Of a DNA stretch of 64,000 bases, positions 3,365 to 35,002 are shown one piece after another (within the stretch, counting starts at the first letter, position 1; each line of letters opens with the position of its first letter). The notes under the pieces were generated by a model. That model did no database searches, was not told the origin of the DNA, and saw only the letters and a program-made list of their open reading frames with translations. The translations under genes and the position numbers were made by a program. This DNA is from a virus. Taxonomy: Duplodnaviria; Heunggongvirae; Uroviricota; Caudoviricetes. The stretch is from IMG/VR virus record IMGVR_UViG_3300029996_000255; one strand, given 5' to 3'.

Positions 3365-3580
3365 ATGACAACTATTGAAAAGTCAAAAGAGGATGCACGG
3401 AACTTAAATGAACTCACGGATCATCTGATTAAGCTGCTTGAATCGGATGACAAGCGGTTCTCATTTGAATTTTGTGCAGGTGGCACAATGGAGATTTACG
3501 ACAAAGAAAAAGAAATCGGTTATGCAGTTCACATTGCACCGATTGAATATGATGAGAACGGAAAAGCAATAAATTTATAG
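3365..3580 (+). CDS. hypothetical protein
   Basis: ORF track; AAGGAGTGAAG RBS. Confidence 0.5.
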   Translation: MTTIEKSKEDARNLNELTDHLIKLLESDDKRFSFEFCAGGTMEIYDKEKEIGYAVHIAPIEYDENGKAINL

Positions 3581-3587
3581 TAACCGC

Positions 3588-3632
3588 AAGGCAGTTAGGA
3601 GAATAATCTACTAGCTGCCTATTTTATTACAA
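3588..3632 (+). terminator. putative intrinsic terminator (7-bp stem AAGGCAG/CTGCCTT followed by a T-rich run)
   Basis: inverted repeat read directly, followed by ATTTTATT. Confidence 0.4.
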
Positions 3633-3650: not shown

Positions 3651-5279
3651 ATGAGTACCTATTATGAATATCAGGATGTAGGCGTAATGATGGCACATAA
3701 GCTTATGGCAATGGACGGATGGGAAGTGTTCGGATATCATGCAGACCATAGCGACATGATGACAGATTATTATGATCCTGCTTATTGGGGTGGAATTGCT
3801 ACAAAGAATGGATATATATTAGTTGTAAATTGGAGCAGAGATGCAAAGCCAGAAGAAATACGCAAATATAATTATGATGGAATACTTCAGGATAGAAGTA
3901 TTTCAGAAAAGATTGCAAAGCTTGAACAGATGACAATGGAAAGAGGAGCAAGTGAACAGGAAGAAGAATCAGCAAAGAAAATGATTGAGAAGTTACGGAG
4001 TAAGGCAAACGAAACTTCTGAAAAATATATTGTAACTGGTATTATTCCTGGACATATGGCAAACCCACCTAGAATGAATTGGCATATTGAAAAAGATGGT
4101 GTCTATGTAGCGAAAGGAAATGGAATTTTAAAGTTCGCTCATATTGATAACTATTATAGATATGAAGGCTACATGAAAGATATGCAGAATTTCAGAACTA
4201 TGAAGCGAGAAGAATATAAAAAATCTTTGATAACAACCTATATGGGTAGATGGAATGATGATGAAGAAAGTGCAGCACGACAGGCAGACAGTCATATTGA
4301 ATCAATGGAAAAAGATAAGGCACTTATGGATCAGTTCGAGGCATTTATCAATAAAATTGATACTACTTGTGGTGGAATGCTTGGAGAAGGAGATGGAGTT
4401 GTATATGAGAAGGTAAAAGTTACTGAATATAAAAAGGAAAACAAAGCTGTTGAAACAGAAAACGGATGTGTCAAAGATGGTCAGTGCTTTATCTTAAAAA
4501 CATCATTCAATTATGGCAGAAATAAGGGATATGTTTACAGAATTAAAGCAACTGTGTATGAGGATGGAAAAACTTCTTATCATGCATATAAACTTAATGG
4601 AAAACTTACAAAAGAATGTACAGGAAATGCAAATCAGGCTAATCACTGGTTTATTGGTACTATGACCGATGGATTTATGAAGTGGGTAAATAAAGGTGCT
4701 ATTGCATGGTGTGAAATTCAGGAAGTTAAAACACCTTATGAGGTTGAAAAGGTTGTAAAGAAAGTTATCAAGTCTAATACAAATAAGACAGAAACAAAGG
4801 CGACTGAAACTGATGTGGACGTAAATAAATATACCTACGAAGTAACAGAAGATACAGACACACGAACAGGAGAAAAGATATATCTTGCAAAGGTAATTGA
4901 GAAATTAAGCCGTGAAGAATATATCAAGGTAAATCAGTATATCAAATCTCTTGGAGGCTATTATAGTAAGTTCAAACATGCTTTCTTATTCAAAGAGAAT
5001 CCATGTGAAAAATTAAATGTAACTATTAAAGAGACAGAGAATAATACAGTGGACGATGCAACAGAACGTACAGAAACACAAATCACATACACTGTAACAG
5101 AAGATGTACACACCAAGACAGGTGAAAAGCTATTTGTAGTAAAGCCTGATACAGAATTATCAAAATCAGACTTTGCAGATGTAAAGCGAAAGCTGGCAAC
5201 ATTACAGGGATTTTACAGTAGCTTTAAGAAGGGATTTATATTCAAATATGATCCAACTGAAAAACTTAGTACAGTATAA
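3651..5279 (+). CDS. large hypothetical protein (542 aa) with two C-terminal tandem ~60-aa repeats (TGEK[IL]..K...LS..[DE][FY]..VK..L..L.G[FY]YS.FK.[AG]F[LI]FK..P.EKL)
   Basis: ORF track; GCGAGGTTGA RBS; internal repeat read from the translation. Confidence 0.7.
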   Translation: MSTYYEYQDVGVMMAHKLMAMDGWEVFGYHADHSDMMTDYYDPAYWGGIATKNGYILVVNWSRDAKPEEIRKYNYDGILQDRSISEKIAKLEQMTMERGASEQEEESAKKMIEKLRSKANETSEKYIVTGIIPGHMANPPRMNWHIEKDGVYVAKGNGILKFAHIDNYYRYEGYMKDMQNFRTMKREEYKKSLITTYMGRWNDDEESAARQADSHIESMEKDKALMDQFEAFINKIDTTCGGMLGEGDGVVYEKVKVTEYKKENKAVETENGCVKDGQCFILKTSFNYGRNKGYVYRIKATVYEDGKTSYHAYKLNGKLTKECTGNANQANHWFIGTMTDGFMKWVNKGAIAWCEIQEVKTPYEVEKVVKKVIKSNTNKTETKATETDVDVNKYTYEVTEDTDTRTGEKIYLAKVIEKLSREEYIKVNQYIKSLGGYYSKFKHAFLFKENPCEKLNVTIKETENNTVDDATERTETQITYTVTEDVHTKTGEKLFVVKPDTELSKSDFADVKRKLATLQGFYSSFKKGFIFKYDPTEKLSTV

Positions 5280-5532: not shown

Positions 5533-7167
5533 ATGTTTACAGATAACAAAGATTTCTACCCAACGCCACAAAATCTTATAGATAAAATGCTTGATGGATT
5601 GGATTGGAAAATGATACATACAGTTCTTGAACCATCAGCAGGTAAGGGAAATATTGTTGAAGCATTAAAGAAAAAGGAAGATTTTAATAACAGATGGTAC
5701 ACAACAATCAAGTTAAATATTGACTGTATAGAGAATGACGTAAACTTACGAGCAGTATTAAAGGAAAAGAATTTCAGAGTTGTACATGATGATTTTTTGA
5801 CATACGACACAATGAAGGAATATGACTTAATTATTATGAATCCTCCGTTCTCAAATGGATGTAAACATCTGTTAAAAGCATTGGAAATGCAACAGAGAAA
5901 TGGCGGTGCTGTTATTTGTCTACTTAACGCAGAGACATTAAAAAATGAATGCAACAATGAAAGAATAATGCTGAATAGAATGTTAGAAGAATACAATGCA
6001 GACATTCAGTATATTCAGGATGCTTTTATGGATGCAGAGAGAAAAACAAACGTTGAAATTGCATTGATAAAAGTAAAACTTCCAGATGTACAGAGAGATT
6101 CTTTTATCTTTGATAGCTTAGAGAAAGCCAAGGAACAGAGAGAATATACATATAACACAGAAAACACGCAGCTTGCAGAAAATGATTTTTTAAAGGCAAT
6201 AGTCGAACAGTATAAAATGGAAGTTGAAGCAGGCGTGAAACTCATTAAAGAGTATTATGCAATGTCACCACATATCCTATATCAGTTTGGAAAAGACAAG
6301 CAGACAGGACAGACAATACAGACTGGCGGTTGCGTGTTAAATCTTAGTATTGGAAAAGATAGTGCATCAGTAAACGGATATATAAGAGAAATTCGTGGTA
6401 AATATTGGTCAGCATTATTTGATAATCCGAAGTTCATTGGTCAGCTCACAAATAATTTGCAGAGAGAATACTATAACAAGGTCGAAGAATTAAAAGACTA
6501 TGAATTTTCGCTGCACAATATATACGAACTGAAAATTGATATGAGCAAGAAAATCATAAAGGGAATTGAAGATACAATTATTTCACTCTTTGAAGAACTG
6601 AGTAATAAATATTCCTATTATGATGAATGCAGTAAGAACATTCATTATTTTAATGGATGGAAAACAAATAAAGCATGGATTATAAATAAAAAAGTAATCA
6701 TTCCATTAAGAGGATGGAGAGATTTGGAATATTCATGGGGTGGATTTAAACCAACCGATCACGATGTAGTAAGCAAATTAAGAGATATTGAAAAGTGCTT
6801 CAATTATCTTGATGGCGGCTTGACAGAAGCAGTTGATTTATTCCAGTCACTAGAATTTGCTGAAGAATATGGAGAGTCAAAAGATATTGTATTGAAGTAT
6901 TTCAATGTAACTTTTTATAAGAAGGGAACTTGCCACATTACATTTACAAATGAAGAGTTATTGAAAAAGTTCAATATATTTGGAGCACAACATAAAGGAT
7001 GGCTGCCACCTTCATATGGAAAGAAAAAATATTCTGATATGACATTAGAAGAAAAAGCAGTTGTAAATGACTTTGAAGGTGAAGTTGAATACAACAAGGT
7101 AATGTGCAACACAAGTTATTATCTGGCAGACACAAACAGTATGTTGATGTTGGATATGGCAGAATAG
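5533..7167 (+). CDS. N6-adenine DNA methyltransferase. The N-terminal domain has the AdoMet-binding motif LEPSAGKGN and catalytic motif IV, IIMNPPFS; a ~340-aa C-terminal extension is a putative target-recognition region
   Basis: motifs I and IV read from the translation; motif order I then IV (gamma-like). Confidence 0.7.
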   Translation: MFTDNKDFYPTPQNLIDKMLDGLDWKMIHTVLEPSAGKGNIVEALKKKEDFNNRWYTTIKLNIDCIENDVNLRAVLKEKNFRVVHDDFLTYDTMKEYDLIIMNPPFSNGCKHLLKALEMQQRNGGAVICLLNAETLKNECNNERIMLNRMLEEYNADIQYIQDAFMDAERKTNVEIALIKVKLPDVQRDSFIFDSLEKAKEQREYTYNTENTQLAENDFLKAIVEQYKMEVEAGVKLIKEYYAMSPHILYQFGKDKQTGQTIQTGGCVLNLSIGKDSASVNGYIREIRGKYWSALFDNPKFIGQLTNNLQREYYNKVEELKDYEFSLHNIYELKIDMSKKIIKGIEDTIISLFEELSNKYSYYDECSKNIHYFNGWKTNKAWIINKKVIIPLRGWRDLEYSWGGFKPTDHDVVSKLRDIEKCFNYLDGGLTEAVDLFQSLEFAEEYGESKDIVLKYFNVTFYKKGTCHITFTNEELLKKFNIFGAQHKGWLPPSYGKKKYSDMTLEEKAVVNDFEGEVEYNKVMCNTSYYLADTNSMLMLDMAE

Positions 7168-26338: not shown

Positions 26339-26995
26339 ATGATTAATAAAGAAATGATGTTGGTTATTAAAAACAATCCTAAATTGTCAGAAATACTTGA
26401 TTTATATATGGCAAATGAAATGAAGAAGTTAAAAAATATTTGCTATAAAATATGGAAAGGTAAGGTTGATAATTACGAAGAAGATGAATTGCTTGACGAT
26501 GCTATAGAAGTATTAATAGAATCTTTAGTTACATATGACGCTAAAAGTAAGGCAAAATTTGAAACTTACCTAACGGGTAATATTTCAAGATCGTCTTACA
26601 GTTGGTTTCGGGATAATAAATATACAGGCTGCCGAAATAATCTTGCCAGAGATGGTAATGGAAAGATTATATATGAAGATGTTAATGGCAAGAAAAGACC
26701 TATAAGAATTGACAATGTTTCATTTGACTTGGATAGTGACGAAATACAGAATTTAAAAGAAACACTATCATCCAAGATAAACATAGAAGATATTCTCATT
26801 GCGGAGGAATATACAGATAAGGTTGAACTATATCTTAGCAATTTACCTAAAAGAGTTAGAGGCGTAGCAAAGTTATTTTCTCAAGAATACAATCGAGATG
26901 AAATTATGGAATTATTACATATAACAGAACAACAATTATTAGACTGTATGAAGATTCTAAAGTCATACGAATACATATCATTATTATTTAATTAA
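26339..26995 (+). CDS. sigma-70-family (ECF/phage-type) RNA polymerase sigma factor-like protein; region-2-like segment DDAIEVLIESLVTYDAKSKAKFETYLTGNISRS and region-4-like HTH segment LPKRVRGVAKLFSQEYNRDEIMELLHITEQQL
   Basis: motif resemblance read from the translation. Confidence 0.5.
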   Translation: MINKEMMLVIKNNPKLSEILDLYMANEMKKLKNICYKIWKGKVDNYEEDELLDDAIEVLIESLVTYDAKSKAKFETYLTGNISRSSYSWFRDNKYTGCRNNLARDGNGKIIYEDVNGKKRPIRIDNVSFDLDSDEIQNLKETLSSKINIEDILIAEEYTDKVELYLSNLPKRVRGVAKLFSQEYNRDEIMELLHITEQQLLDCMKILKSYEYISLLFN

Positions 26996-27013: not shown

Positions 27014-28558
27014 ATGGCAGTAATGTTAGGAAGAGATAAGGTAGTAAAGACACAATTAATGTTAGGAACGGTGATTAAGCAGTTTAGAACAAATGTAATC
27101 AATAAGAATCATCCATTACAGAGAAAACCTGATCAGTGGTCGGACGAAGCAAAATCTGGACTTGCTGCCAGTGTAATTAAACATGAAGATATTGATTCAA
27201 TTAAATTATGTGAACAGATTTACGAAAATAGTTTCACAAACTGGCTTATTGATGGATTACAGAGATTAACTGTATTGGAAGAGTTTAAAAATAATGTCTT
27301 TGCAATGGGAAAATCATTGAGAATGCCTATGATAGCTTATCAAGCTGAAGATGGAAGTGGTAATGTTGTTGAGTATGATTTAAGAGGTAAGAAATACAAA
27401 GACCTTCCAGATGAGTTAAGAGAAGAATTTGATAATTTCCAGGTAGATATAGTTAAGCATCTTGATTGTACTAATGAAGAGATAGCTTATCATATTGATA
27501 GATATAATAAGCAGACAAGTATGAATACAAATCAGAAAAATGTTTTGATGATGTATAAAGTGGTAGATTCACTTAAAAGGGTTACAAAGAATAGATTCTT
27601 CTTGGACTGTGGTGAATATACAGCACCTGAAAGAAAGAAAGAAGTATTAAATAGAGTAGTTGAAGAGTCATTAATGTTAATGTTCCATTCTGATTCTTGG
27701 AAGAAAAACGCAGCTATGGCTAAGTATCTTAATGAAAATGCCGCAGAAGAGGAATTCAATATATTAGAAGAGGAACTTAATAGATTACAAAAAGTAATAG
27801 ATCAAGATACTAACGGACAGTTATTTAATAGCAAGAATAGCTTTATTTGGTTGGCAGCTTTTCATAAGTTTACTTCATATAACATAGAAGATATTAAATT
27901 TGCTGATTTCTTAAATGAATTTCAGGGAATATTACATAGCATGACATTTAAAGAATATGATAATGAATCATTTGATACATATGATAGCAACCGAAGCACA
28001 AAGGATAAAAAAGTTGTAATGGCTAAGTTAGATATGGTTACTAAGCTTATGGAAGAATATTTACATATAAATAAGGAAGAAACTCATTCAGAAATCGAAG
28101 AAGTTGTTGAAAATACAACAGAAAACACAGTACAAATTATCTCTGGAACAGAGAATAATACTATGTCTTCTAATGAAGACGATGAAACAGATAGTAATAT
28201 ATCAGAACAGAATACGGGTAGTTCTGATGTATTACAGTTTGTTCAAAATAGTGTGGCAGAAGATATAGAGAATGAAGATATAAGTGAATATCAAGATTTT
28301 GTTGATGTATATATTGATATAAATTCATCGTTATATAAACAGTGTGAAGCAGCGTTAATGGCATTAACAGCTTATGCTTATAAAACTGATAAGGATGAAG
28401 AACTTGCAACTTGGATTGAACAGTATCAGAAGAATTCAATTGATAAGACATATAGTTCTTCGCAGGAAGTAAATTATAGATATATGAAGAGAGATTTTGA
28501 TAATTACATAAATTTCTTAAATAATATGGAGAAAGGAAGAACAGCTAGTGTTAATTAA
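27014..28558 (+). CDS. DUF262 (ParB/GmrSD-N-like) domain protein with the IDGLQRLT motif; long acidic low-complexity C-terminal tail and no recognisable HNH/DUF1524 domain
   Basis: DGQQR-type motif at residues ~79-86. Confidence 0.55.
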   Translation: MAVMLGRDKVVKTQLMLGTVIKQFRTNVINKNHPLQRKPDQWSDEAKSGLAASVIKHEDIDSIKLCEQIYENSFTNWLIDGLQRLTVLEEFKNNVFAMGKSLRMPMIAYQAEDGSGNVVEYDLRGKKYKDLPDELREEFDNFQVDIVKHLDCTNEEIAYHIDRYNKQTSMNTNQKNVLMMYKVVDSLKRVTKNRFFLDCGEYTAPERKKEVLNRVVEESLMLMFHSDSWKKNAAMAKYLNENAAEEEFNILEEELNRLQKVIDQDTNGQLFNSKNSFIWLAAFHKFTSYNIEDIKFADFLNEFQGILHSMTFKEYDNESFDTYDSNRSTKDKKVVMAKLDMVTKLMEEYLHINKEETHSEIEEVVENTTENTVQIISGTENNTMSSNEDDETDSNISEQNTGSSDVLQFVQNSVAEDIENEDISEYQDFVDVYIDINSSLYKQCEAALMALTAYAYKTDKDEELATWIEQYQKNSIDKTYSSSQEVNYRYMKRDFDNYINFLNNMEKGRTASVN

Positions 28559-28744: not shown

Positions 28745-28945
28745 ATGCCAGATATTACAATGTGTACAAGCAAAACATGTGAAAGAAGAAAACAGTGTTA
28801 TAGAGCAATAGCAAAGCCAGATAAGATACAAAGTTATGCTGATTTTACTTCGTTATGTGCAGATAGAGATTTTAGATGTCAATGGATTGTTACTGACAGA
28901 GAAGTACTTGCTGATGATATAAGTAGCTTGTTAGTAAGATGCTAA
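28745..28945 (+). CDS. small Cys-rich protein
   Basis: ORF track; ATGC overlap. Confidence 0.4.
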   Translation: MPDITMCTSKTCERRKQCYRAIAKPDKIQSYADFTSLCADRDFRCQWIVTDREVLADDISSLLVRC

Positions 28946-28964
28946 AATACAGGAGAATAATAAA

Positions 28965-29108
28965 ATGGATAAAGATACAAATAAGCGAAATGAACTTAGA
29001 AAACAGTTACAAGCCTTATCAAAGGAGCGAATTATTGAATTATATATTCACTTATTCATGAATTTTTCTAATGATAAGGATGAAACCGATTGGGAAGATA
29101 TTAAATAG
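28965..29108 (+). CDS. small hypothetical protein (47 aa)
   Basis: AGGAGAATAATAAA ATG. Confidence 0.3.
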   Translation: MDKDTNKRNELRKQLQALSKERIIELYIHLFMNFSNDKDETDWEDIK

Positions 29109-29244
29109 AAGAGAACAGATTGCAAAAGTTTGCCGACCTAAACAATCTGCTCAGAGAATAAAATATAGGATAAACTATATATGTTCTATTATAACAAATC
29201 TATTTGGCTAATTCAAGCCAGTTTATCCTATAACAATTAGTCTT

Positions 29245-29324
29245 TTGACTACGGGCTATTTTGAGTCCGAATAGTGAGGATTATATCACTCACTGAAAAG
29301 TATGTAATTTATATGTAATTTGAA
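29245..29324 (+). repeat. module A: ~80-bp structured prefix (..CCGAATAGTGAGG hairpin CTCACTGAAAAGTATGTAATT..TTTGAA) directly preceding repeat unit 1; a ~65%-identical copy (module B) lies at 29508-29587
   Basis: alignment of the two segments by eye. Confidence 0.5.
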
Positions 29325-29688
29325 GTTTTGGAAGTATATGAAATTACATACTAACAAAATACCTGGCAACAGAGAGGAGATGTTTCAGTTGTTTTGGAAG
29401 TATAGTTACATACTAGCAAAATTACATGATATATATCGACACAAGTTATAAAATTTTAGAAGTATATAAAATTACATCTCATTAAAAGAATATATAAATG
29501 AAATTAAAATCAATTCTATTGCGGTAGATTTTACTGCCGAATCGTGAGTGCAATGCAACTCATGAAAATCTATGTAATAAGTTTGAGGTTTTAGATACAT
29601 ATAAAATTACATAGGTATAAAACTAAAAATATGAAAATAAAAGTTAATGACAGTTTTAGATACATATAAAATTACATAGGTATAAAAC
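29325..29688 (+). CRISPR. CRISPR-like mini-array with five 32-36-bp direct repeats: 29325-29360, 29391-29422, 29453-29488, 29588-29623 and 29653-29688, the last two identical (GTTTTAGATACATATAAAATTACATAGGTATAAAAC). Spacers are 30, 30 and 29 bp, plus one ~99-bp interval occupied by module B
   Basis: repeat/spacer periodicity of 62-66 bp; repeats begin GTTTTRGA and end AAAA[CT]/AAAG with GTTTTA...TAAAAC terminal complementarity. Confidence 0.55.
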
Positions 29689-29769
29689 ACTTGCGTTGTT
29701 GTACTTGTAAACTGTTTAATTTTAGAGATATTTAAAATTACAAAAAATATAAAAGGAGATTTACAAATT

Positions 29770-31158
29770 ATGGGAAACAATAGAATGACAATTTGTAGAA
29801 AAATTAAATTATTTCCAGTAGGAGATAAGGATGAAATCAATAGAGTATATGACTTTATTAGAAATGGTCAGTATGCTCAATATCAGGCTTGTAACCTGCT
29901 TATGGGACAGCTTATGAGTGAATATTACAAATATAATCGTGATATTAAGAATGAAGAATTTAAGGCAAGACAGAAAGAAATAATGACAAACTCTAATATC
30001 ATATTAAAAGATATTGATTTTGCAACTGGTGTAGACACTCCATCAGCCGTTACTCAGAAAGTCAAGCAGGATTTCAGCACAGCTTTAAAGAATGGATTGG
30101 CTAAAGGTGAACGAACTGTAACAAATTATAAGAGAACTAATCCACTTATTACAAGAGGCAGAAACTTAACTTTTTATCATGAGTATGAAACATATCATGA
30201 TTTTTTAGACAAGATTAATGATTCTGATTTGGCGGTATATGTCAAGTGGGTTAATAAAATTGTATTTAAGGTTGTGTTTGGCAATCCGCATAGGTCATTA
30301 GAGTTAAGATCTGTTATTCAGAATATATTAGAAGAGAATTATAAAGTGCAAGGAAGTAGCATTGAAATTGATGGTAAGTCAATCATTTTAAATCTCTCAA
30401 TATCTATTCCAAAACAACTTAGAGAGCTGGATGAAAATATAGTAGTAGGTGTTGATTTAGGCATTGCAGTTCCTGCTATGTGTGCTTTAAACAATAATCT
30501 TTACGAGAGATTGGCAATTGGAAATGCAGATGATTTTCTAAGAATAAGAACTAAAATGCAAGCTCAGAGAAAAAGATTACAGAAGTCATTACGAAATACT
30601 TCTGGTGGTCATGGTAGAGCAAAGAAACTGAAAGCATTAGAAAGATTGCAGAAAGCAGAAGTACATTTTGTTGAAACATATTGTCATATGATAAGTAAAA
30701 GAGTCGTTGATTTTGCTTTAAAACATAATGCTAAATACATAAATATTGAGAATTTAACAGGATATGATACAAGTGATTTTATCCTGAGAAATTGGAGTTA
30801 TTATAAACTTCAAGATTATATTACATATAAAGCAGCTAAATACGGAATAGAAGTAAGAAAAATCAATCCTTGTTATACATCACAGATTTGTAGTGTATGT
30901 GGTAATTGGGAGTTTGGTCAGAGAAAGTCACAGTCAGTATTTGAATGTGCAAATGAGAATTGTGATAGTCATAAAAAATATGAAAAAACTGGTTTTAATG
31001 CAGACTTCAATGCTGCCAGAAACATTGCAATGTCAACTCTTTGGATGGGAAGTGGACAAGTTACTGAAAAGAGTAAACAGGAAGCAAGAGAATATTATGA
31101 TATCTCTGAAAAATATGAACAAAGTAAGAATGGTTCAGAGAATAATAAAGTAGCTTAA
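29770..31158 (+). CDS. TnpB/Cas12f-like RuvC nuclease (462 aa): RuvC-I VVGVDLGIAVPAM, Arg-rich helix, RuvC-II YINIENLTG, CxxC...CxxC zinc ribbon (CYTSQICSVCG...FECANENCDSH), RuvC-III NADFNAARNIA; catalytic D/E/D all present
   Basis: domain order and motifs match OrfB_IS605 plus the Zn-ribbon architecture; AAAAGGAGA RBS. Confidence 0.8.
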   Translation: MGNNRMTICRKIKLFPVGDKDEINRVYDFIRNGQYAQYQACNLLMGQLMSEYYKYNRDIKNEEFKARQKEIMTNSNIILKDIDFATGVDTPSAVTQKVKQDFSTALKNGLAKGERTVTNYKRTNPLITRGRNLTFYHEYETYHDFLDKINDSDLAVYVKWVNKIVFKVVFGNPHRSLELRSVIQNILEENYKVQGSSIEIDGKSIILNLSISIPKQLRELDENIVVGVDLGIAVPAMCALNNNLYERLAIGNADDFLRIRTKMQAQRKRLQKSLRNTSGGHGRAKKLKALERLQKAEVHFVETYCHMISKRVVDFALKHNAKYINIENLTGYDTSDFILRNWSYYKLQDYITYKAAKYGIEVRKINPCYTSQICSVCGNWEFGQRKSQSVFECANENCDSHKKYEKTGFNADFNAARNIAMSTLWMGSGQVTEKSKQEAREYYDISEKYEQSKNGSENNKVA

Positions 31159-31268
31159 GTGCTACTTAATCAATCGTAAGATTGCAGGTGATTTTGCACC
31201 TGAATGGCGAGGTTGTTAATTAATGGCACTCGTTAGAATCTATGTTAATAGTATCTGTGTGATTTGAG

Positions 31269-31304
31269 GTTTTAGATATGTTTAATTTAACATAGATACA
31301 AAAC
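31269..31304 (+). repeat. solitary 36-bp repeat downstream of the nuclease gene (GTTTTAGATATGTTTAATTTAACATAGATACAAAAC, ~78% identical to the upstream units), preceded by a partial module-like prefix (AATCTATGTTAATA..GATTTGAG)
   Basis: direct comparison with units 4 and 5. Confidence 0.5.
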
Positions 31305-31419
31305 ACGGTTAAGACAACATTTTACTCAGTAAAATGATTATTCAATATAGATACTACAGAAATGTTGAGATTATCAAGCTAATGGAAGAAAAATATAATA
31401 CGAAAAGGAGAATAGTTAA

Positions 31420-31581
31420 ATGTCAGTATTTTTTATATTAGTTTTAATAGGATTAATAATTTTATGGTTTCTACTGTCACCTTTATTTGAAAAAATTGGT
31501 AAGTTTGTTATCAATGTTATAAATAAAGTATTTTCGACAGATGAAATAAATAATAACGAAGAAAAGGAGACAAAAGAATGA
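31420..31581 (+). CDS. NfeD-like small membrane protein (53 aa), translationally coupled (ATGA) to the SPFH gene
   Basis: hydrophobic N-terminus FFILVLIGLIILWFLL; classic NfeD-SPFH operon arrangement; AAAGGAGAATAG RBS. Confidence 0.4.
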   Translation: MSVFFILVLIGLIILWFLLSPLFEKIGKFVINVINKVFSTDEINNNEEKETKE

Positions 31582-32447
31582 AGAAAACAATCGGAGGAGT
31601 AGTAACAGTAGTAGTAATTGTTGTTGTAGCAATATTATTATTTATGTCAAGTGTGCGTGTACCTGCTGGCTATATTGCCGTACAGTACAGTATGTCGGGT
31701 GGAGTAAAAGGCGATATTCTTACACAAGGATGGCATTTAAAGTCACCAACTGTAAAAACGACACTTTACTCGGTGAGTCTTGAACAGAGTTATTTAACAT
31801 CTGGTAAGGACGGAGACTCTAAAGATGATGACAGCTTTTCAGCGAGTTCATCTGAGGGTAAGGCTATGCAGATAGATCTTACATTTACATATCAGTATAG
31901 TCCTGATAAGGTAGCTGATCTATTTACAAGATTTAGAGGACAATCTGGAAAGGAAGTAAGAGACAGTTTTATTAAACCTAACATTATTTCTTGGACTAAA
32001 GAAATTGTTGCTAACTATAAGGTGTCAGATATTCTTGGTTCTGAAAGAGCAAATGTAAATACAGCATTAACTGATTATCTTAATAAGAAGTTTGAACCAT
32101 ATGGTATAGCGATTAGTAATGTATCATTGATTAATATTTCCGTTGATACAAAGACACAGGAAGCTATTAATGCAAAGATTACAGCACAGCAGGCAGCCGA
32201 AACTCAGGAAATTAATAATCAGACAGCTATTAATAAGGCAAAGGCTGATGCAGAAGTAACTAAGGCAGAAGCACAAGCAAAGGCTGATGCACAGTTAATC
32301 GAAGCCAAAGCACAGGCAGAGGCGAATAATAAGTTAAGTTCTTCTATTACAGATGAGCTTATAAGAATGAAGGAAGCCGAAGCAAGAAATAAATTTGGTT
32401 GGGTTACTATTTCTGGAACTAACAATACAGTTGTAACAGATAAGTAA
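31578..32447 (+). CDS. SPFH/band-7 (HflC/HflK/prohibitin-like) membrane protein with N-terminal TM helix and C-terminal Ala/Gln-rich coiled coil
   Basis: PAGYIAVQYSMSGGVKGDILTQGWHLKSP SPFH core motif. Confidence 0.7.
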   Translation: MKKTIGGVVTVVVIVVVAILLFMSSVRVPAGYIAVQYSMSGGVKGDILTQGWHLKSPTVKTTLYSVSLEQSYLTSGKDGDSKDDDSFSASSSEGKAMQIDLTFTYQYSPDKVADLFTRFRGQSGKEVRDSFIKPNIISWTKEIVANYKVSDILGSERANVNTALTDYLNKKFEPYGIAISNVSLINISVDTKTQEAINAKITAQQAAETQEINNQTAINKAKADAEVTKAEAQAKADAQLIEAKAQAEANNKLSSSITDELIRMKEAEARNKFGWVTISGTNNTVVTDK

Positions 32448-32468
32448 TTATTAATATTAATTAAAAGG

Positions 32469-32490
32469 TGTGATATAACTCACACCTTAC
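32469..32490 (+). terminator. hairpin (AGGTGTGA / TCACACCT, 8 bp) between the SPFH gene and tRNA-Gln; no T-run, so a terminator or processing structure
   Basis: read directly. Confidence 0.35.
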
Positions 32491-32493
32491 TAA

Positions 32494-32566
32494 TGGGATG
32501 TGGTGAAGTGGTCAACACATCAGATTTTGATTCTGACATTCGTGGGTTCGAATCCCACCATCCTAG
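32494..32566 (+). tRNA. tRNA-Gln (anticodon TTG)
   Basis: manual cloverleaf: acceptor TGGGATG/CATCCTA (U1:A72, typical of bacterial tRNA-Gln), anticodon stem TCAGA/TCTGA with loop TTTTGAT, T-arm GTGGG-TTCGAAT-CCCAC. Confidence 0.7.
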
Positions 32567-34591: not shown

Positions 34592-34630
34592 TTTTGAAAT
34601 TTTCATTTCTTTGGATTGTGAGGTAAAAAT

Positions 34631-35002
34631 ATGCAAATAAATATTAGTTATACATTATATACAGACGGGGATTACAGTTTAAGGAATGCCGAAGATTTTG
34701 GTTGTACTAATAGAGACGTAGTAGTTGATGATTTTGAATATTATGATTATGTTGGTTCTATAGAATTTAAATATGAAGAGGAGTGGCGTTGTAAAAGCGA
34801 AGCAAAAAATTTTCTTTGGAGATTTTTATGTGATGGAATTCATATATCTTATACACATCCTTGGTTACTTAAAGATTTTTATGACATTATGGAATCTTTA
34901 GAGAATATTATTAATGAATATCAAGAGGGAATATCTGTAGCCAAAAAGCATATAACAGGTAACTATGAGGGAACAGAAATTAAAATAGAAATATTGAAGT
35001 AA
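34631..35002 (+). CDS. hypothetical protein
   Basis: ORF track; conserved 5'UTR TTCTTTGGATTGTGAGGT. Confidence 0.5.
   Translation: MQINISYTLYTDGDYSLRNAEDFGCTNRDVVVDDFEYYDYVGSIEFKYEEEWRCKSEAKNFLWRFLCDGIHISYTHPWLLKDFYDIMESLENIINEYQEGISVAKKHITGNYEGTEIKIEILK

Follow-up and report, generated by a model that had tools for sequence, protein, structure and literature searches.

What lies directly behind a compact nuclease gene in the genome of a tailed phage (Caudoviricetes; IMG/VR record IMGVR_UViG_3300029996_000255), the end of a transposon or a part of a CRISPR system? A reading made from the letters alone (below, the sequence-only reading) had taken the nuclease for TnpB-like and the structured DNA behind it for a candidate omega-RNA, i.e. 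the guide-RNA scaffold of IS200/IS605 elements, or alternatively for a region encoding a trans-activating CRISPR RNA (tracrRNA). We have analysed this element in a 64 kb stretch of the record (the window), to whose coordinates all positions refer, together with the loci of relatives, which are labelled L001 etc. and keep their own numbering. Overall, our data indicate that 31165-31354 on the + strand is very probably the third tracrRNA-plus-mini-array cassette of a phage-borne type V-F1 CRISPR-Cas12f system. As such it is an element of a known kind, but in an unusual variant that is compact, occurs in several cassettes, is fused in cis to its array and has a type II-A-like leader-repeat junction.

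The nuclease belongs to the Cas12f1 clade

The protein encoded at 29770-31158 matches the Cas12f and Cas12u3 models of PADLOC over its full length at about 1e-110 (Cas12f, 2.5e-110) and the Pfam family Cas12f1-like_TNB at 1.7e-15. The nearest solved structures, i.e. those of homologous effectors, are 8hr5 (1.3e-87), which bears only the label 'Transposase' in its PDB entry and which we take to be CnCas12f1, and then 9nzp (2e-81). Both the RuvC D/E/D motifs (VGVDLG, NIENL, NADFNAARN) and a CxxC...CxxC zinc finger (CSVCGN..FECANENC) align with 8hr5; 9nzp is RhCas12f (PMC13186708). More than 1,600 homologues of the protein are found in metagenomes. To judge from these matches, the gene encodes a type V-F1 CRISPR effector and not a transposon TnpB.

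If the locus were nevertheless an IS200/IS605 element of the kind exemplified by ISDra2, the scaffold would be an omega-RNA representing the right end of the transposon, and its guide would be the DNA flanking the insertion. There is a genuine likeness, as the scaffold begins 13 nt past the stop codon with the guide on its 3' side, as the best NCBIfam model for the protein is the generic 'guided_TnpB', and as the downstream cassettes of L001, L002 and L009-14 are compact, lack a full repeat and run on into fixed flanking DNA, those of L001 and L002 resembling one-piece guide RNAs. Moreover, Cas12 enzymes are thought to have descended from TnpB (PMC10097598). However, the specific NCBIfam model IS200_TnpB reaches only 5e-12, far under its cut-off, compared with approximately 1e-110 on the Cas12f models, and the protein thus falls into Cas12f families. 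In addition, the window contains just one copy of the gene, which is syntenic, i.e. placed alike, in every related phage genome (32-186 kb), there is no transposon context, with no transposase domain among the ten neighbouring open reading frames (ORFs) scanned (left and right transposon ends were not searched exhaustively), and the scaffold does not overlap the coding sequence. Finally, repeats with spacers of 29-30 nt that turn over in relatives lie on both sides of the gene, and what follows the repeat of the downstream cassette is of spacer size and ends in a repeat remnant, so that the guide comes from a spacer between repeats. An omega-RNA is therefore very unlikely, and the IS200/IS605 framework of the sequence-only reading has to be given up for a Cas12f1-clade nuclease flanked by CRISPR arrays with variable spacers; its tracrRNA alternative, a guide-RNA scaffold directly 3' of the nuclease gene, is supported by homology to Cas12f tracrRNAs. 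We also considered the Cas12p 'hacker' nucleases of phages, but these form a different family (E = 0.0024 to 9jfs) and were dismissed.

Three cassettes with a common architecture

A covariance model that we derived from related cassettes has exactly three matches in the window (120-134 bits), all on the + strand, which is also that of cas12f. These cassettes A, B and C (table 1) consist, in the same order, of a hairpin hp0, a hairpin hp1 (6 bp, loop AUUUUR), the bases AAU, a hairpin hp2, an anti-repeat, a linker ending in TTTGAG (TTTGAA in A) and a 36-nt repeat; the repeat family is absent elsewhere in the window. Each cassette has its own repeat variant with a matching anti-repeat, AGTATGTAATTT pairing with AAATTACATACT in A, ATCTATGTAAT with ATTACATAGGT in B and ATCTATGTTAA with TTAACATAGAT in C. 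RNAduplex energies of each tail against each repeat did not cleanly separate cognate from non-cognate pairs, and we claim no orthogonality. In cassette C, the scaffold (31171-31248) is bordered by the stop codon (31158) on its 5' side and by the repeat (31269) on its 3' side, and no more than 20 nt of the same strand separate the anti-repeat from the first repeat. Array C in the window is tiny, with one full repeat, one 30-nt spacer and one decayed repeat. This remnant is identical to repeat positions 11-31 at 17 of 21 bases, with an alignment score of 12 compared with 7.95 +/- 1.63 for shuffled sequences (p = 0.028), and arrays A and B likewise end in degenerate repeats.

Table 1. Features of the cas12f locus in window coordinates.
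Feature	Position	Strand	Basis or remark
Cassette A, scaffold and first repeat	29232-29360	+	covariance model
Cassette A with array A	29232-29488	+	repeats 29325-29360, 29391-29422, 29453-29488; two 30-nt spacers
Cassette B, scaffold and first repeat	29501-29623	+	covariance model
Cassette B with array B	29501-29754	+	repeats 29588-29623, 29653-29688 (identical); spacers of 29 and 30 nt
Degenerate third repeat of array B	29719-29754	+	extends to the cas12f ribosome-binding site
cas12f, 462 aa, Cas12f1 clade	29770-31158	+	Pfam, PADLOC and PDB matches
Stop-codon hairpin GTAGC/GCTAC, role doubtful	31150-31165	+	sequence; in close relatives only
Cassette C, third of three	31165-31304	+	covariance model
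hp0: CAATC 31171-31175, GTAA loop, GATTG 31180-31184	31171-31184	+	RNA folding; GNRA cap, abuts hp1
hp1: CAGGTG-AUUUUG-CACCTG	31185-31202	+	covariation, alignment; counterpart of RhCas12f1 tracrRNA stem 1
hp2: GGCGAGG...CACTCGTT	~31205-31235	+	folding, covariation, alignment; counterpart of Rh tracrRNA stem 2
Anti-repeat ATCTATGTTAA	31238-31248	+	perfect 11-bp helix with 31287-31297 (TTAACATAGAT)
ATTTGAG directly 5' of first repeat (GTTT...)	31262-31268	+	type II-A Group 1 leader-end motif
CRISPR repeat, type C, 36 nt	31269-31304	+	3' half (31287-31297) pairs with anti-repeat
Single-stranded tail ACAAAAC ahead of guide	31298-31304	+	folding
30-nt spacer ACGGTTAAGACAACATTTTACTCAGTAAAA	31305-31334	+	relatives' arrays; old, common to relatives
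Decayed terminal repeat, 5'-truncated	31335-31354	+	alignment to repeat
Protospacer-like site (31749-31778, SPFH codons 58-67) with CCA 5'	31746-31778	+	cassette C spacer match

Parts of this anatomy had already surfaced in the sequence-only reading. Its coordinates for the 36-nt repeat (31269-31304) agree exactly with those of the repeat finder, and its three inverted repeats all exist, but in slightly different places. The sequence GTAGC-ttaagt-GCTAC, which it put at 31155-31172 and behind the stop codon, is found at 31150-31165 when the letters are read directly and straddles the gene end, with the TAA (31156-31158) in its loop; CAGGTG-attttg-CACCTG, now recognized as hp1, is at 31185-31202 instead of 31186-31203; and the terminal palindrome is at 31319-31335 instead of 31320-31336. 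The last of these is drawn by RNAfold as an 8-bp stem (31318-31336), but lies inside the spacer-like 30-mer and by our estimate is not clearly beyond chance at 31% GC. The list of two hairpins turned out to be incomplete, as hp0, hp2 and the pairing between anti-repeat and repeat had been overlooked. What had been called a partial module prefix is the anti-repeat (31238-31248), i.e. the perfect complement of 31287-31297, and the supposedly solitary repeat is the first repeat of a mini-array. The expectation that the hairpins be conserved at homologous loci holds for hp0 to hp2, whereas the stop-codon hairpin is confined to close relatives and is broken in the variant L009. On the - strand this last hairpin (31148-31167) has a T-rich tail and is flagged as terminator-like; the annotated ORFs flanking it are both on the + strand.

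Folding and covariation point to an RNA on the cas12f strand

As an RNA, the + strand of 31160-31345 has a folding energy of -45.9 kcal/mol (z = -3.75; none of 200 shuffled sequences was as low), compared with z = -2.13 for the - strand. RNAalifold recovered hp1, hp2 and the anti-repeat:repeat helix without guidance from an alignment of 24 diverse cassettes. In this alignment, 97.6% of the cells pair, as against 78.7% after shuffling (0 of 500 shuffles attained the observed value) and 29-44% when the partners are slid by one to three columns, and 14 of 25 pairs show a compensatory change. Among 76 distinct cassettes, in an alignment that was fitted to the model and thus leans towards the structure, 95.7% of the cells pair and 22 of the 25 pairs covary. 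All four helices contribute to this pattern. A hairpin of the hp0 type, with 4-6 bp and ending at the base before hp1, is present in all of the 24 cassettes (mean stem 4.67 bp, compared with 1.68 bp after shuffling) and is built from at least nine different stem sequences. The six pairs of hp1 are 98-100% paired, and four to six of them show compensatory changes; hp2 combines the conserved TGAGG...ACTC with a covarying base and top of the stem; and in the anti-repeat:repeat helix of 10-11 bp, all ten modelled pairs show a compensatory change among the 76 cassettes. Moreover, every cassette tested folds singly into the same four-helix shape. A search of 28900-31600 against Rfam at a permissive E-value returned no match.

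The same data reveal the strand. Of 590 cells, 66 hold G-U pairs, and pairing of the same helices read from the - strand drops to only 87.1%; the RNA therefore lies on the cas12f strand, and an RNA read from the - strand was rejected on its G-U content. In principle, a structure in this place could also be just the 3' untranslated region or the terminator of cas12f, with no role in guiding, as it is situated directly past the stop codon, which one of the hairpins even spans. Yet, as the sequence-only reading had correctly noted, neither of its hairpins is followed by a T-run, nor is any other hairpin of the + strand here, and our scan shows no + strand terminator in this region, the sole + strand terminator-like site being that at 29204-29221, upstream of cassette A. 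Since, in addition, the same structure occurs twice upstream of the gene and is homologous to tracrRNA, this explanation is extremely unlikely.

The scaffold is homologous to a validated Cas12f tracrRNA

The tracrRNA and single-guide RNA (sgRNA) of RhCas12f1, which are functional in the editing of human cells (PMC10090079 Supplementary Data 1) and have been visualized by cryo-electron microscopy (9NZP; PMC13186708), begin with ACGGTTGATTTAGCAACCGAAGTCTGAGG, while cassette 1 of L001 begins with ACGGTTGATTTGACAGCCGAAAGGTGAGG. In our alignment A2, the hp1 loop GATTT, an AA spacer and TGAGG...ACTC are invariant across the phage cassettes and the Rh and Clostridium sgRNAs, i.e. the likeness to RhCas12f1 comprises stem 1 with its GAUUU loop, the AA spacer and, in stem 2, UGAGG...ACUC. 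As in Rh/Cn-type systems, the pairing partner of the anti-repeat is the 3' part of the repeat, and an A/U-rich tail of 5-7 nt precedes a 3' guide. The model derived from phage cassettes even finds the Rh-type tracr of Clostridium bornimense (L073, 40 bits), which begins about 10 nt past cas12f, with a typical Rh-type array starting about 170 nt further on; similarly, the tracrRNAs of SpCas12f1 and AsCas12f1 are encoded between cas12f1 and array (PMC8548392). Since Rh-type L073 and the Sp and As tracrRNAs are placed in this way, cassette C, just 3' of cas12f and on the same strand, is in the canonical tracr position of a V-F1 system.

Against this background, several differences stand out. From hp0 to the anti-repeat, the scaffold measures about 78 nt, compared with 124 nt in Rh and 153-169 nt in Sp and As, and it carries an extra 5' hairpin, hp0, relative to the Rh-type tracrRNA. 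The 20 nt between anti-repeat and first repeat compare with a leader of about 170 nt at C. bornimense, and the repeats measure 36 nt and the spacers 30 nt, compared with about 29-30 nt and about 36 nt, respectively, in the Rh type. There are three cassettes at this locus and up to six or seven at others (L026, L027), and the system is phage-borne, with no cas1, cas2 or cas4 among the neighbours scanned.

The position of the cassette is conserved as well. Related cassettes were collected from 26 IMG/VR phage contigs (32-186 kb), three further contigs, and genomes or metagenome-assembled genomes (MAGs) of Clostridia, Lachnospiraceae and related bacteria. In 20 of 20 close relatives the cassette starts 9-10 nt past the stop codon, and at bacterial loci with a cas12f homologue it begins within about 60 nt of the stop in seven of nine cases, down to 34% protein identity; in L045 and L072 cassettes are upstream of the homologue. 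Some bacterial loci run on into ordinary arrays, with four spacers in L079 and three in L064. L026 (1279-4254) and L027 (1279-4215), with Cas12f proteins that are 55-58% identical, have six or seven cassettes, mostly downstream of the gene, each with its own repeat variant, and their anti-repeats covary with their repeats. The closest public contig is that of L004/L040 (IMGVR_UViG_3300045988_142412 = ENA OWRJ01000136, human gut metagenome, 109,631 bp), where Cas12f and cassette C are identical to those of the window, array A has one more spacer and array B two more; the window is thus a variant strain and not this very record. A blastn search of the locus against GenBank phages gave no match.

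Arrays turn over on the scaffold side, and an old spacer resembles an SPFH gene

Whether the bases past 31304 act as a guide, as the sequence-only reading had proposed for them as omega-RNA flank, is best judged from the relatives. A new 30-nt spacer, enclosed by two full repeats, is present in array C of L006/7, L018-21 and L023. Past their last repeat, L006/7, L020 and L021 then continue with the sequence seen in the window (ACGGTTAAGACAACATTTTACTCAGTAAAATGATT...), which is thus conserved and not strain-specific, whereas in L018/19 and L023 the old 30-mer has been removed by deletions. These bases are indeed guide-like, but as a 30-nt CRISPR spacer followed by a decayed repeat, and they are no flanking sequence in the transposon sense, as relatives insert new spacers upstream of the 30-mer. 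More generally, near-identical phages share the spacers at the far end of their arrays and differ by new ones next to the scaffold. By this comparison the arrays appear to be live.

The spacer of cassette C has its best match in the window at 31749-31778, in sense orientation within the SPFH (Band 7) gene 445 nt downstream. Translated, the spacer reads TVKTTFYSVK and the gene TVKTTLYSVS, in frame and in the sense direction with eight of ten codons agreeing, and seven of the nine mismatches are at codon position 3 (binomial estimate P ~0.008). Among 73 spacers compared with the window by six-frame translation, this is the sole match with at least 8/10 amino-acid identity. The argument for a relationship rests on this frame, the codon-position pattern, the uniqueness among the 73 spacers and a junction in L023 (3566-3700), where the terminal repeat of array C is joined directly to the SPFH interior at the equivalent of window position 31749, precisely at the protospacer-like site of the old spacer, in what looks like a deletion of about 445 bp from spacer to protospacer that truncates SPFH. 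We read the spacer as what looks like an old one that stems from the SPFH allele carried by a related phage. The site is accompanied by CCA on its 5' side, and the protospacer adjacent motif (PAM) used by RhCas12f1 is 5'-CCD. Because the resident allele is mismatched at five of the first 20 guide positions (3, 6, 9, 12 and 16), it should escape. Such a spacer fits inter-phage competition, as described for viral mini-arrays (PMC11656645), with which the locus has in common that one or two spacers reside in a virus genome and that at least one resembles a gene of a related phage. In contrast to the classical viral mini-arrays, which borrow a host effector, this phage has its own effector and its own tracrRNAs.

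Alternatively, cassette C might produce a regulatory RNA with a fixed guide, i.e. a natural sgRNA or cr-like RNA with which Cas12f would bind the phage's own SPFH gene (31749-31778, next to CCA) and modulate it without cutting. The best window match of the 30-mer, in sense only 445 nt downstream and beside CCA, would fit this idea, as would stand-alone repeats that yield cr-like RNAs in other CRISPR types, as described in a preprint (bioRxiv 10.1101/2023.03.03.530964), and the truncation or loss of the SPFH region beside array C in L023, L018, L019 and L022. However, the mismatches fall on about every third PAM-proximal base, as in a diverged coding homologue, and make an R-loop unlikely; the target is situated within a coding region and not in a promoter; and relatives add ordinary spacers to the very same array. 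A regulatory role of this kind thus appears improbable, and we continue to regard the 30-mer as a spacer of a V-F1 mini-array.

Further observations concern the same arrays. In L018, L019 and L022 (~3536-3620), a tRNA-Gln gene is found about 11 nt past the last repeat of array C, and in comparison with window 31305-32494 a small ORF and the whole SPFH gene are gone; with L023 taken into account as well, the flank of array C looks like a deletion hot spot that removes the gene which the old spacer resembles. The spacer GTAAAAGGAAAGTGGTCTGATGCTGATCTT is present twice in tandem in array B of L004 (1723-1818) and once in array C of L023 (3536-3565), which hints at duplication inside one array and, between cassettes, at exchange or repeated acquisition. 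A spacer of L014 (1811-1840) is found inverted in the array region of L010-L013 (1860-1886), as a 27-nt exact match on the opposite strand. In the window itself, array B opens with a spacer (29624-29652, TAAAAATATGAAAATAAAAG...) that is similar to the beginning of the ORF 34631-35002 including its ribosome-binding site (window 34624-34651; 22 of 28 bases identical, including 17 of the first 18; readings MKIKVND and MQINISY); this spacer may stem from the diverged homologue of a rival phage or reflect chance in AT-rich DNA.

A type II-A-like junction suggests how spacers could be supplied

Where the cassettes meet their first repeats, the sequences are ATTTGAG/GTTT in C (31262-31272), GTTTGAG/GTTT in B (29581-29591) and ATTTGAA/GTTT in A (29318-29328). 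The sequence in C is exactly the conserved leader-repeat junction of Group 1 type II-A systems (PMC5382924) and the commonest one among 36 cassettes; in Group 1, a single repeat together with the final 10 nt of the leader is sufficient for adaptation (PMC5382924). The likeness to this group includes 36-nt repeats starting with G (with a type II-A-like final C in cassettes B and C, whereas the type A repeat ends in T), 30-nt spacers and polarized, leader-proximal insertion; insertion next to the scaffold is the polarity of Cas1-Cas2 integration. It does not include the genes: cas1, cas2, cas4, cas9 and csn2 were not found among the neighbouring ORFs scanned or beside the bacterial homologues of L079, L069 and L062, and the 3' half of the repeat is matched to an anti-repeat of the Cas12f type and not to a Cas9 tracrRNA. 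Because of the junction, the geometry of 36-nt repeats and 30-nt spacers, and the lack of adaptation genes nearby, the arrays may be loaded by the type II-A adaptation module of a host.

Two rather different explanations have to be weighed here. One of them takes the cassette as leader only, with its hairpins serving as promoter and integration signal and having no part in a Cas12f-bound RNA, since the cassette is at the place of a leader, new spacers enter on its side and its last 7 nt are the type II-A anchoring motif ATTTGAG. Yet covariation that includes G-U pairs speaks for an RNA rather than a DNA site, the RNA seen bound to RhCas12f1 has homologues of hp1 and hp2, and in a leader there would be no reason for anti-repeat and repeat to covary; we consider an exclusive leader function improbable, but leader and tracr roles may coexist. 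According to the other, the repeat of cassette C would be a solitary-repeat RNA anti-CRISPR that mimics the repeat of a host type II-A system and titrates Cas9 or its tracrRNA. Viral single repeat units acting as RNA anti-CRISPRs have been described (PMC11656645), cassette C has a single intact repeat in the window, and this repeat is type II-A-like in its ends and length (GTTTTAGA...AAAAC, 36 nt). However, it is of the same family as the repeats in the other arrays of this phage, it covaries with the anti-repeat of its cassette and it carries a spacer, and relatives gain more of these, all of which renders an anti-CRISPR function highly improbable.

A tentative and, in our view, rather speculative extension of the type V-F1 assignment is that the locus is a hybrid of two CRISPR types, i.e. 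a V-F1 tracrRNA fused in cis to an array of type II-A character that is loaded by the host and read by the phage nuclease. In such a hybrid the role of leader would also fall to the tracr scaffold, with the first unit acting as a natural single-guide RNA of about 100 nt and the three to seven scaffold/repeat pairs per locus representing separate guide channels. In the literature searched, we did not find one scaffold per mini-array, fused to the first repeat and with a co-evolving anti-repeat.

Proposed mechanism and its weighing

In the V-F1 system that we propose, transcription of the + strand would start at a promoter in the terminal part of cas12f, or else the RNA would be part of the cas12f transcript. 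The RNA would be processed, and hp0, hp1 and hp2 would fold into a scaffold that binds a Cas12f dimer, by analogy with the Rh structure, and we assume that it is bound by the Cas12f encoded here. Anti-repeat and 3' half of the repeat would pair, leaving ACAAAAC and then the spacer (from 31305) single-stranded as a 3' guide, an arrangement common to all Cas12f guide RNAs. Since no more than 20 nt of one strand lie between scaffold and repeat, the first unit could fold as a natural single-guide RNA, while in relatives with a multi-spacer array C one scaffold would serve the later repeats in trans. The Cas12f dimer with its RNA would then cut DNA that matches the guide and adjoins a PAM.

Several results weigh against this proposal. 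The phage scaffold is without the AAGGGUUAA-plus-stem-3 segment of the Rh and Clostridium tracrRNAs, its anti-repeat following 2-4 nt past hp2; we treat this as a clade difference and not as a ground for exclusion. In L009-L014 and L017, hp0 to hp2 are kept but the anti-repeat:repeat helix is lost, i.e. the downstream cassette can decay. With 19 promoter-like sites compared with 16.6 expected by chance, no transcription start can be assigned, and there is no terminator 3' of cassette C. As a nucleotide match, the 21/30 agreement between spacer and SPFH is not significant, as 53 of 200 shuffled sequences reach 21. About 70 spacers have no protospacer in the window, the fetched loci, GenBank phages or PLSDB plasmids. 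Scans of IMG/VR for exact 20-22-mers from four array spacers and the trailer 30-mer, as well as one scan of a metagenome collection by exact spacer, retrieved only the arrays themselves. When IMG/VR was scanned with a codon-degenerate pattern for the SPFH allele of origin, only trailers were retrieved.

Taken together with the structural conservation, the sequence evidence nevertheless indicates that the structured element is functional. What had looked like an oddity in raw sequence can thus be placed in a complete and probably active RNA-guided nuclease system of phages from the human gut and other metagenomes. Its Cas12f of 462 aa appears to be served by a natural scaffold much shorter than those of characterized Cas12f enzymes, which matters in practice, as the length of the guide RNA is known to be a disadvantage of Cas12f editors. 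Having one scaffold per mini-array, the layout provides natural examples linking tracrRNA-plus-crRNA (CRISPR RNA) pairs to one-piece guides such as omega-RNA, and the type II-A-like junction offers a testable idea on how spacers are supplied to effector-only phage CRISPR loci.

Variants and neighbours of the cassettes

Compact downstream cassettes are found at 4387-4487 in L001, at 4401-4490 in L002 and at 3396-3480 in loci of the L010 type. In that of L001, a 5-nt loop closes the anti-repeat:repeat hairpin, much as in sgRNAs made by engineering. L009-L014 have lost the helix by deletion, and their hp0 to hp2 are joined to ...ATACAAAAA followed by the ribosome-binding site of the next gene.

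Among the bacterial loci, L077 (Clostridium sp. AF37-5) has scaffolds flanking a cas12f homologue that is 50% identical (4684-4830 and 6497-6790); these are followed by several short hairpin units ending in CACAAAAA, at very short or irregular intervals that do not correspond to normal spacers. L049, from the MAG Clostridia bacterium HGM12814, has two cassettes (1383-1493 and 4221-4396; up to 100 bits), and tblastn detected no cas12f homologue within this 8-kb locus. Upstream of the cassettes in the window, 26339-26995 has a weak Pfam match to Sigma-70 region 2 and 27014-28558 one to the GmrSD N-terminal domain, both under the curated cut-off.

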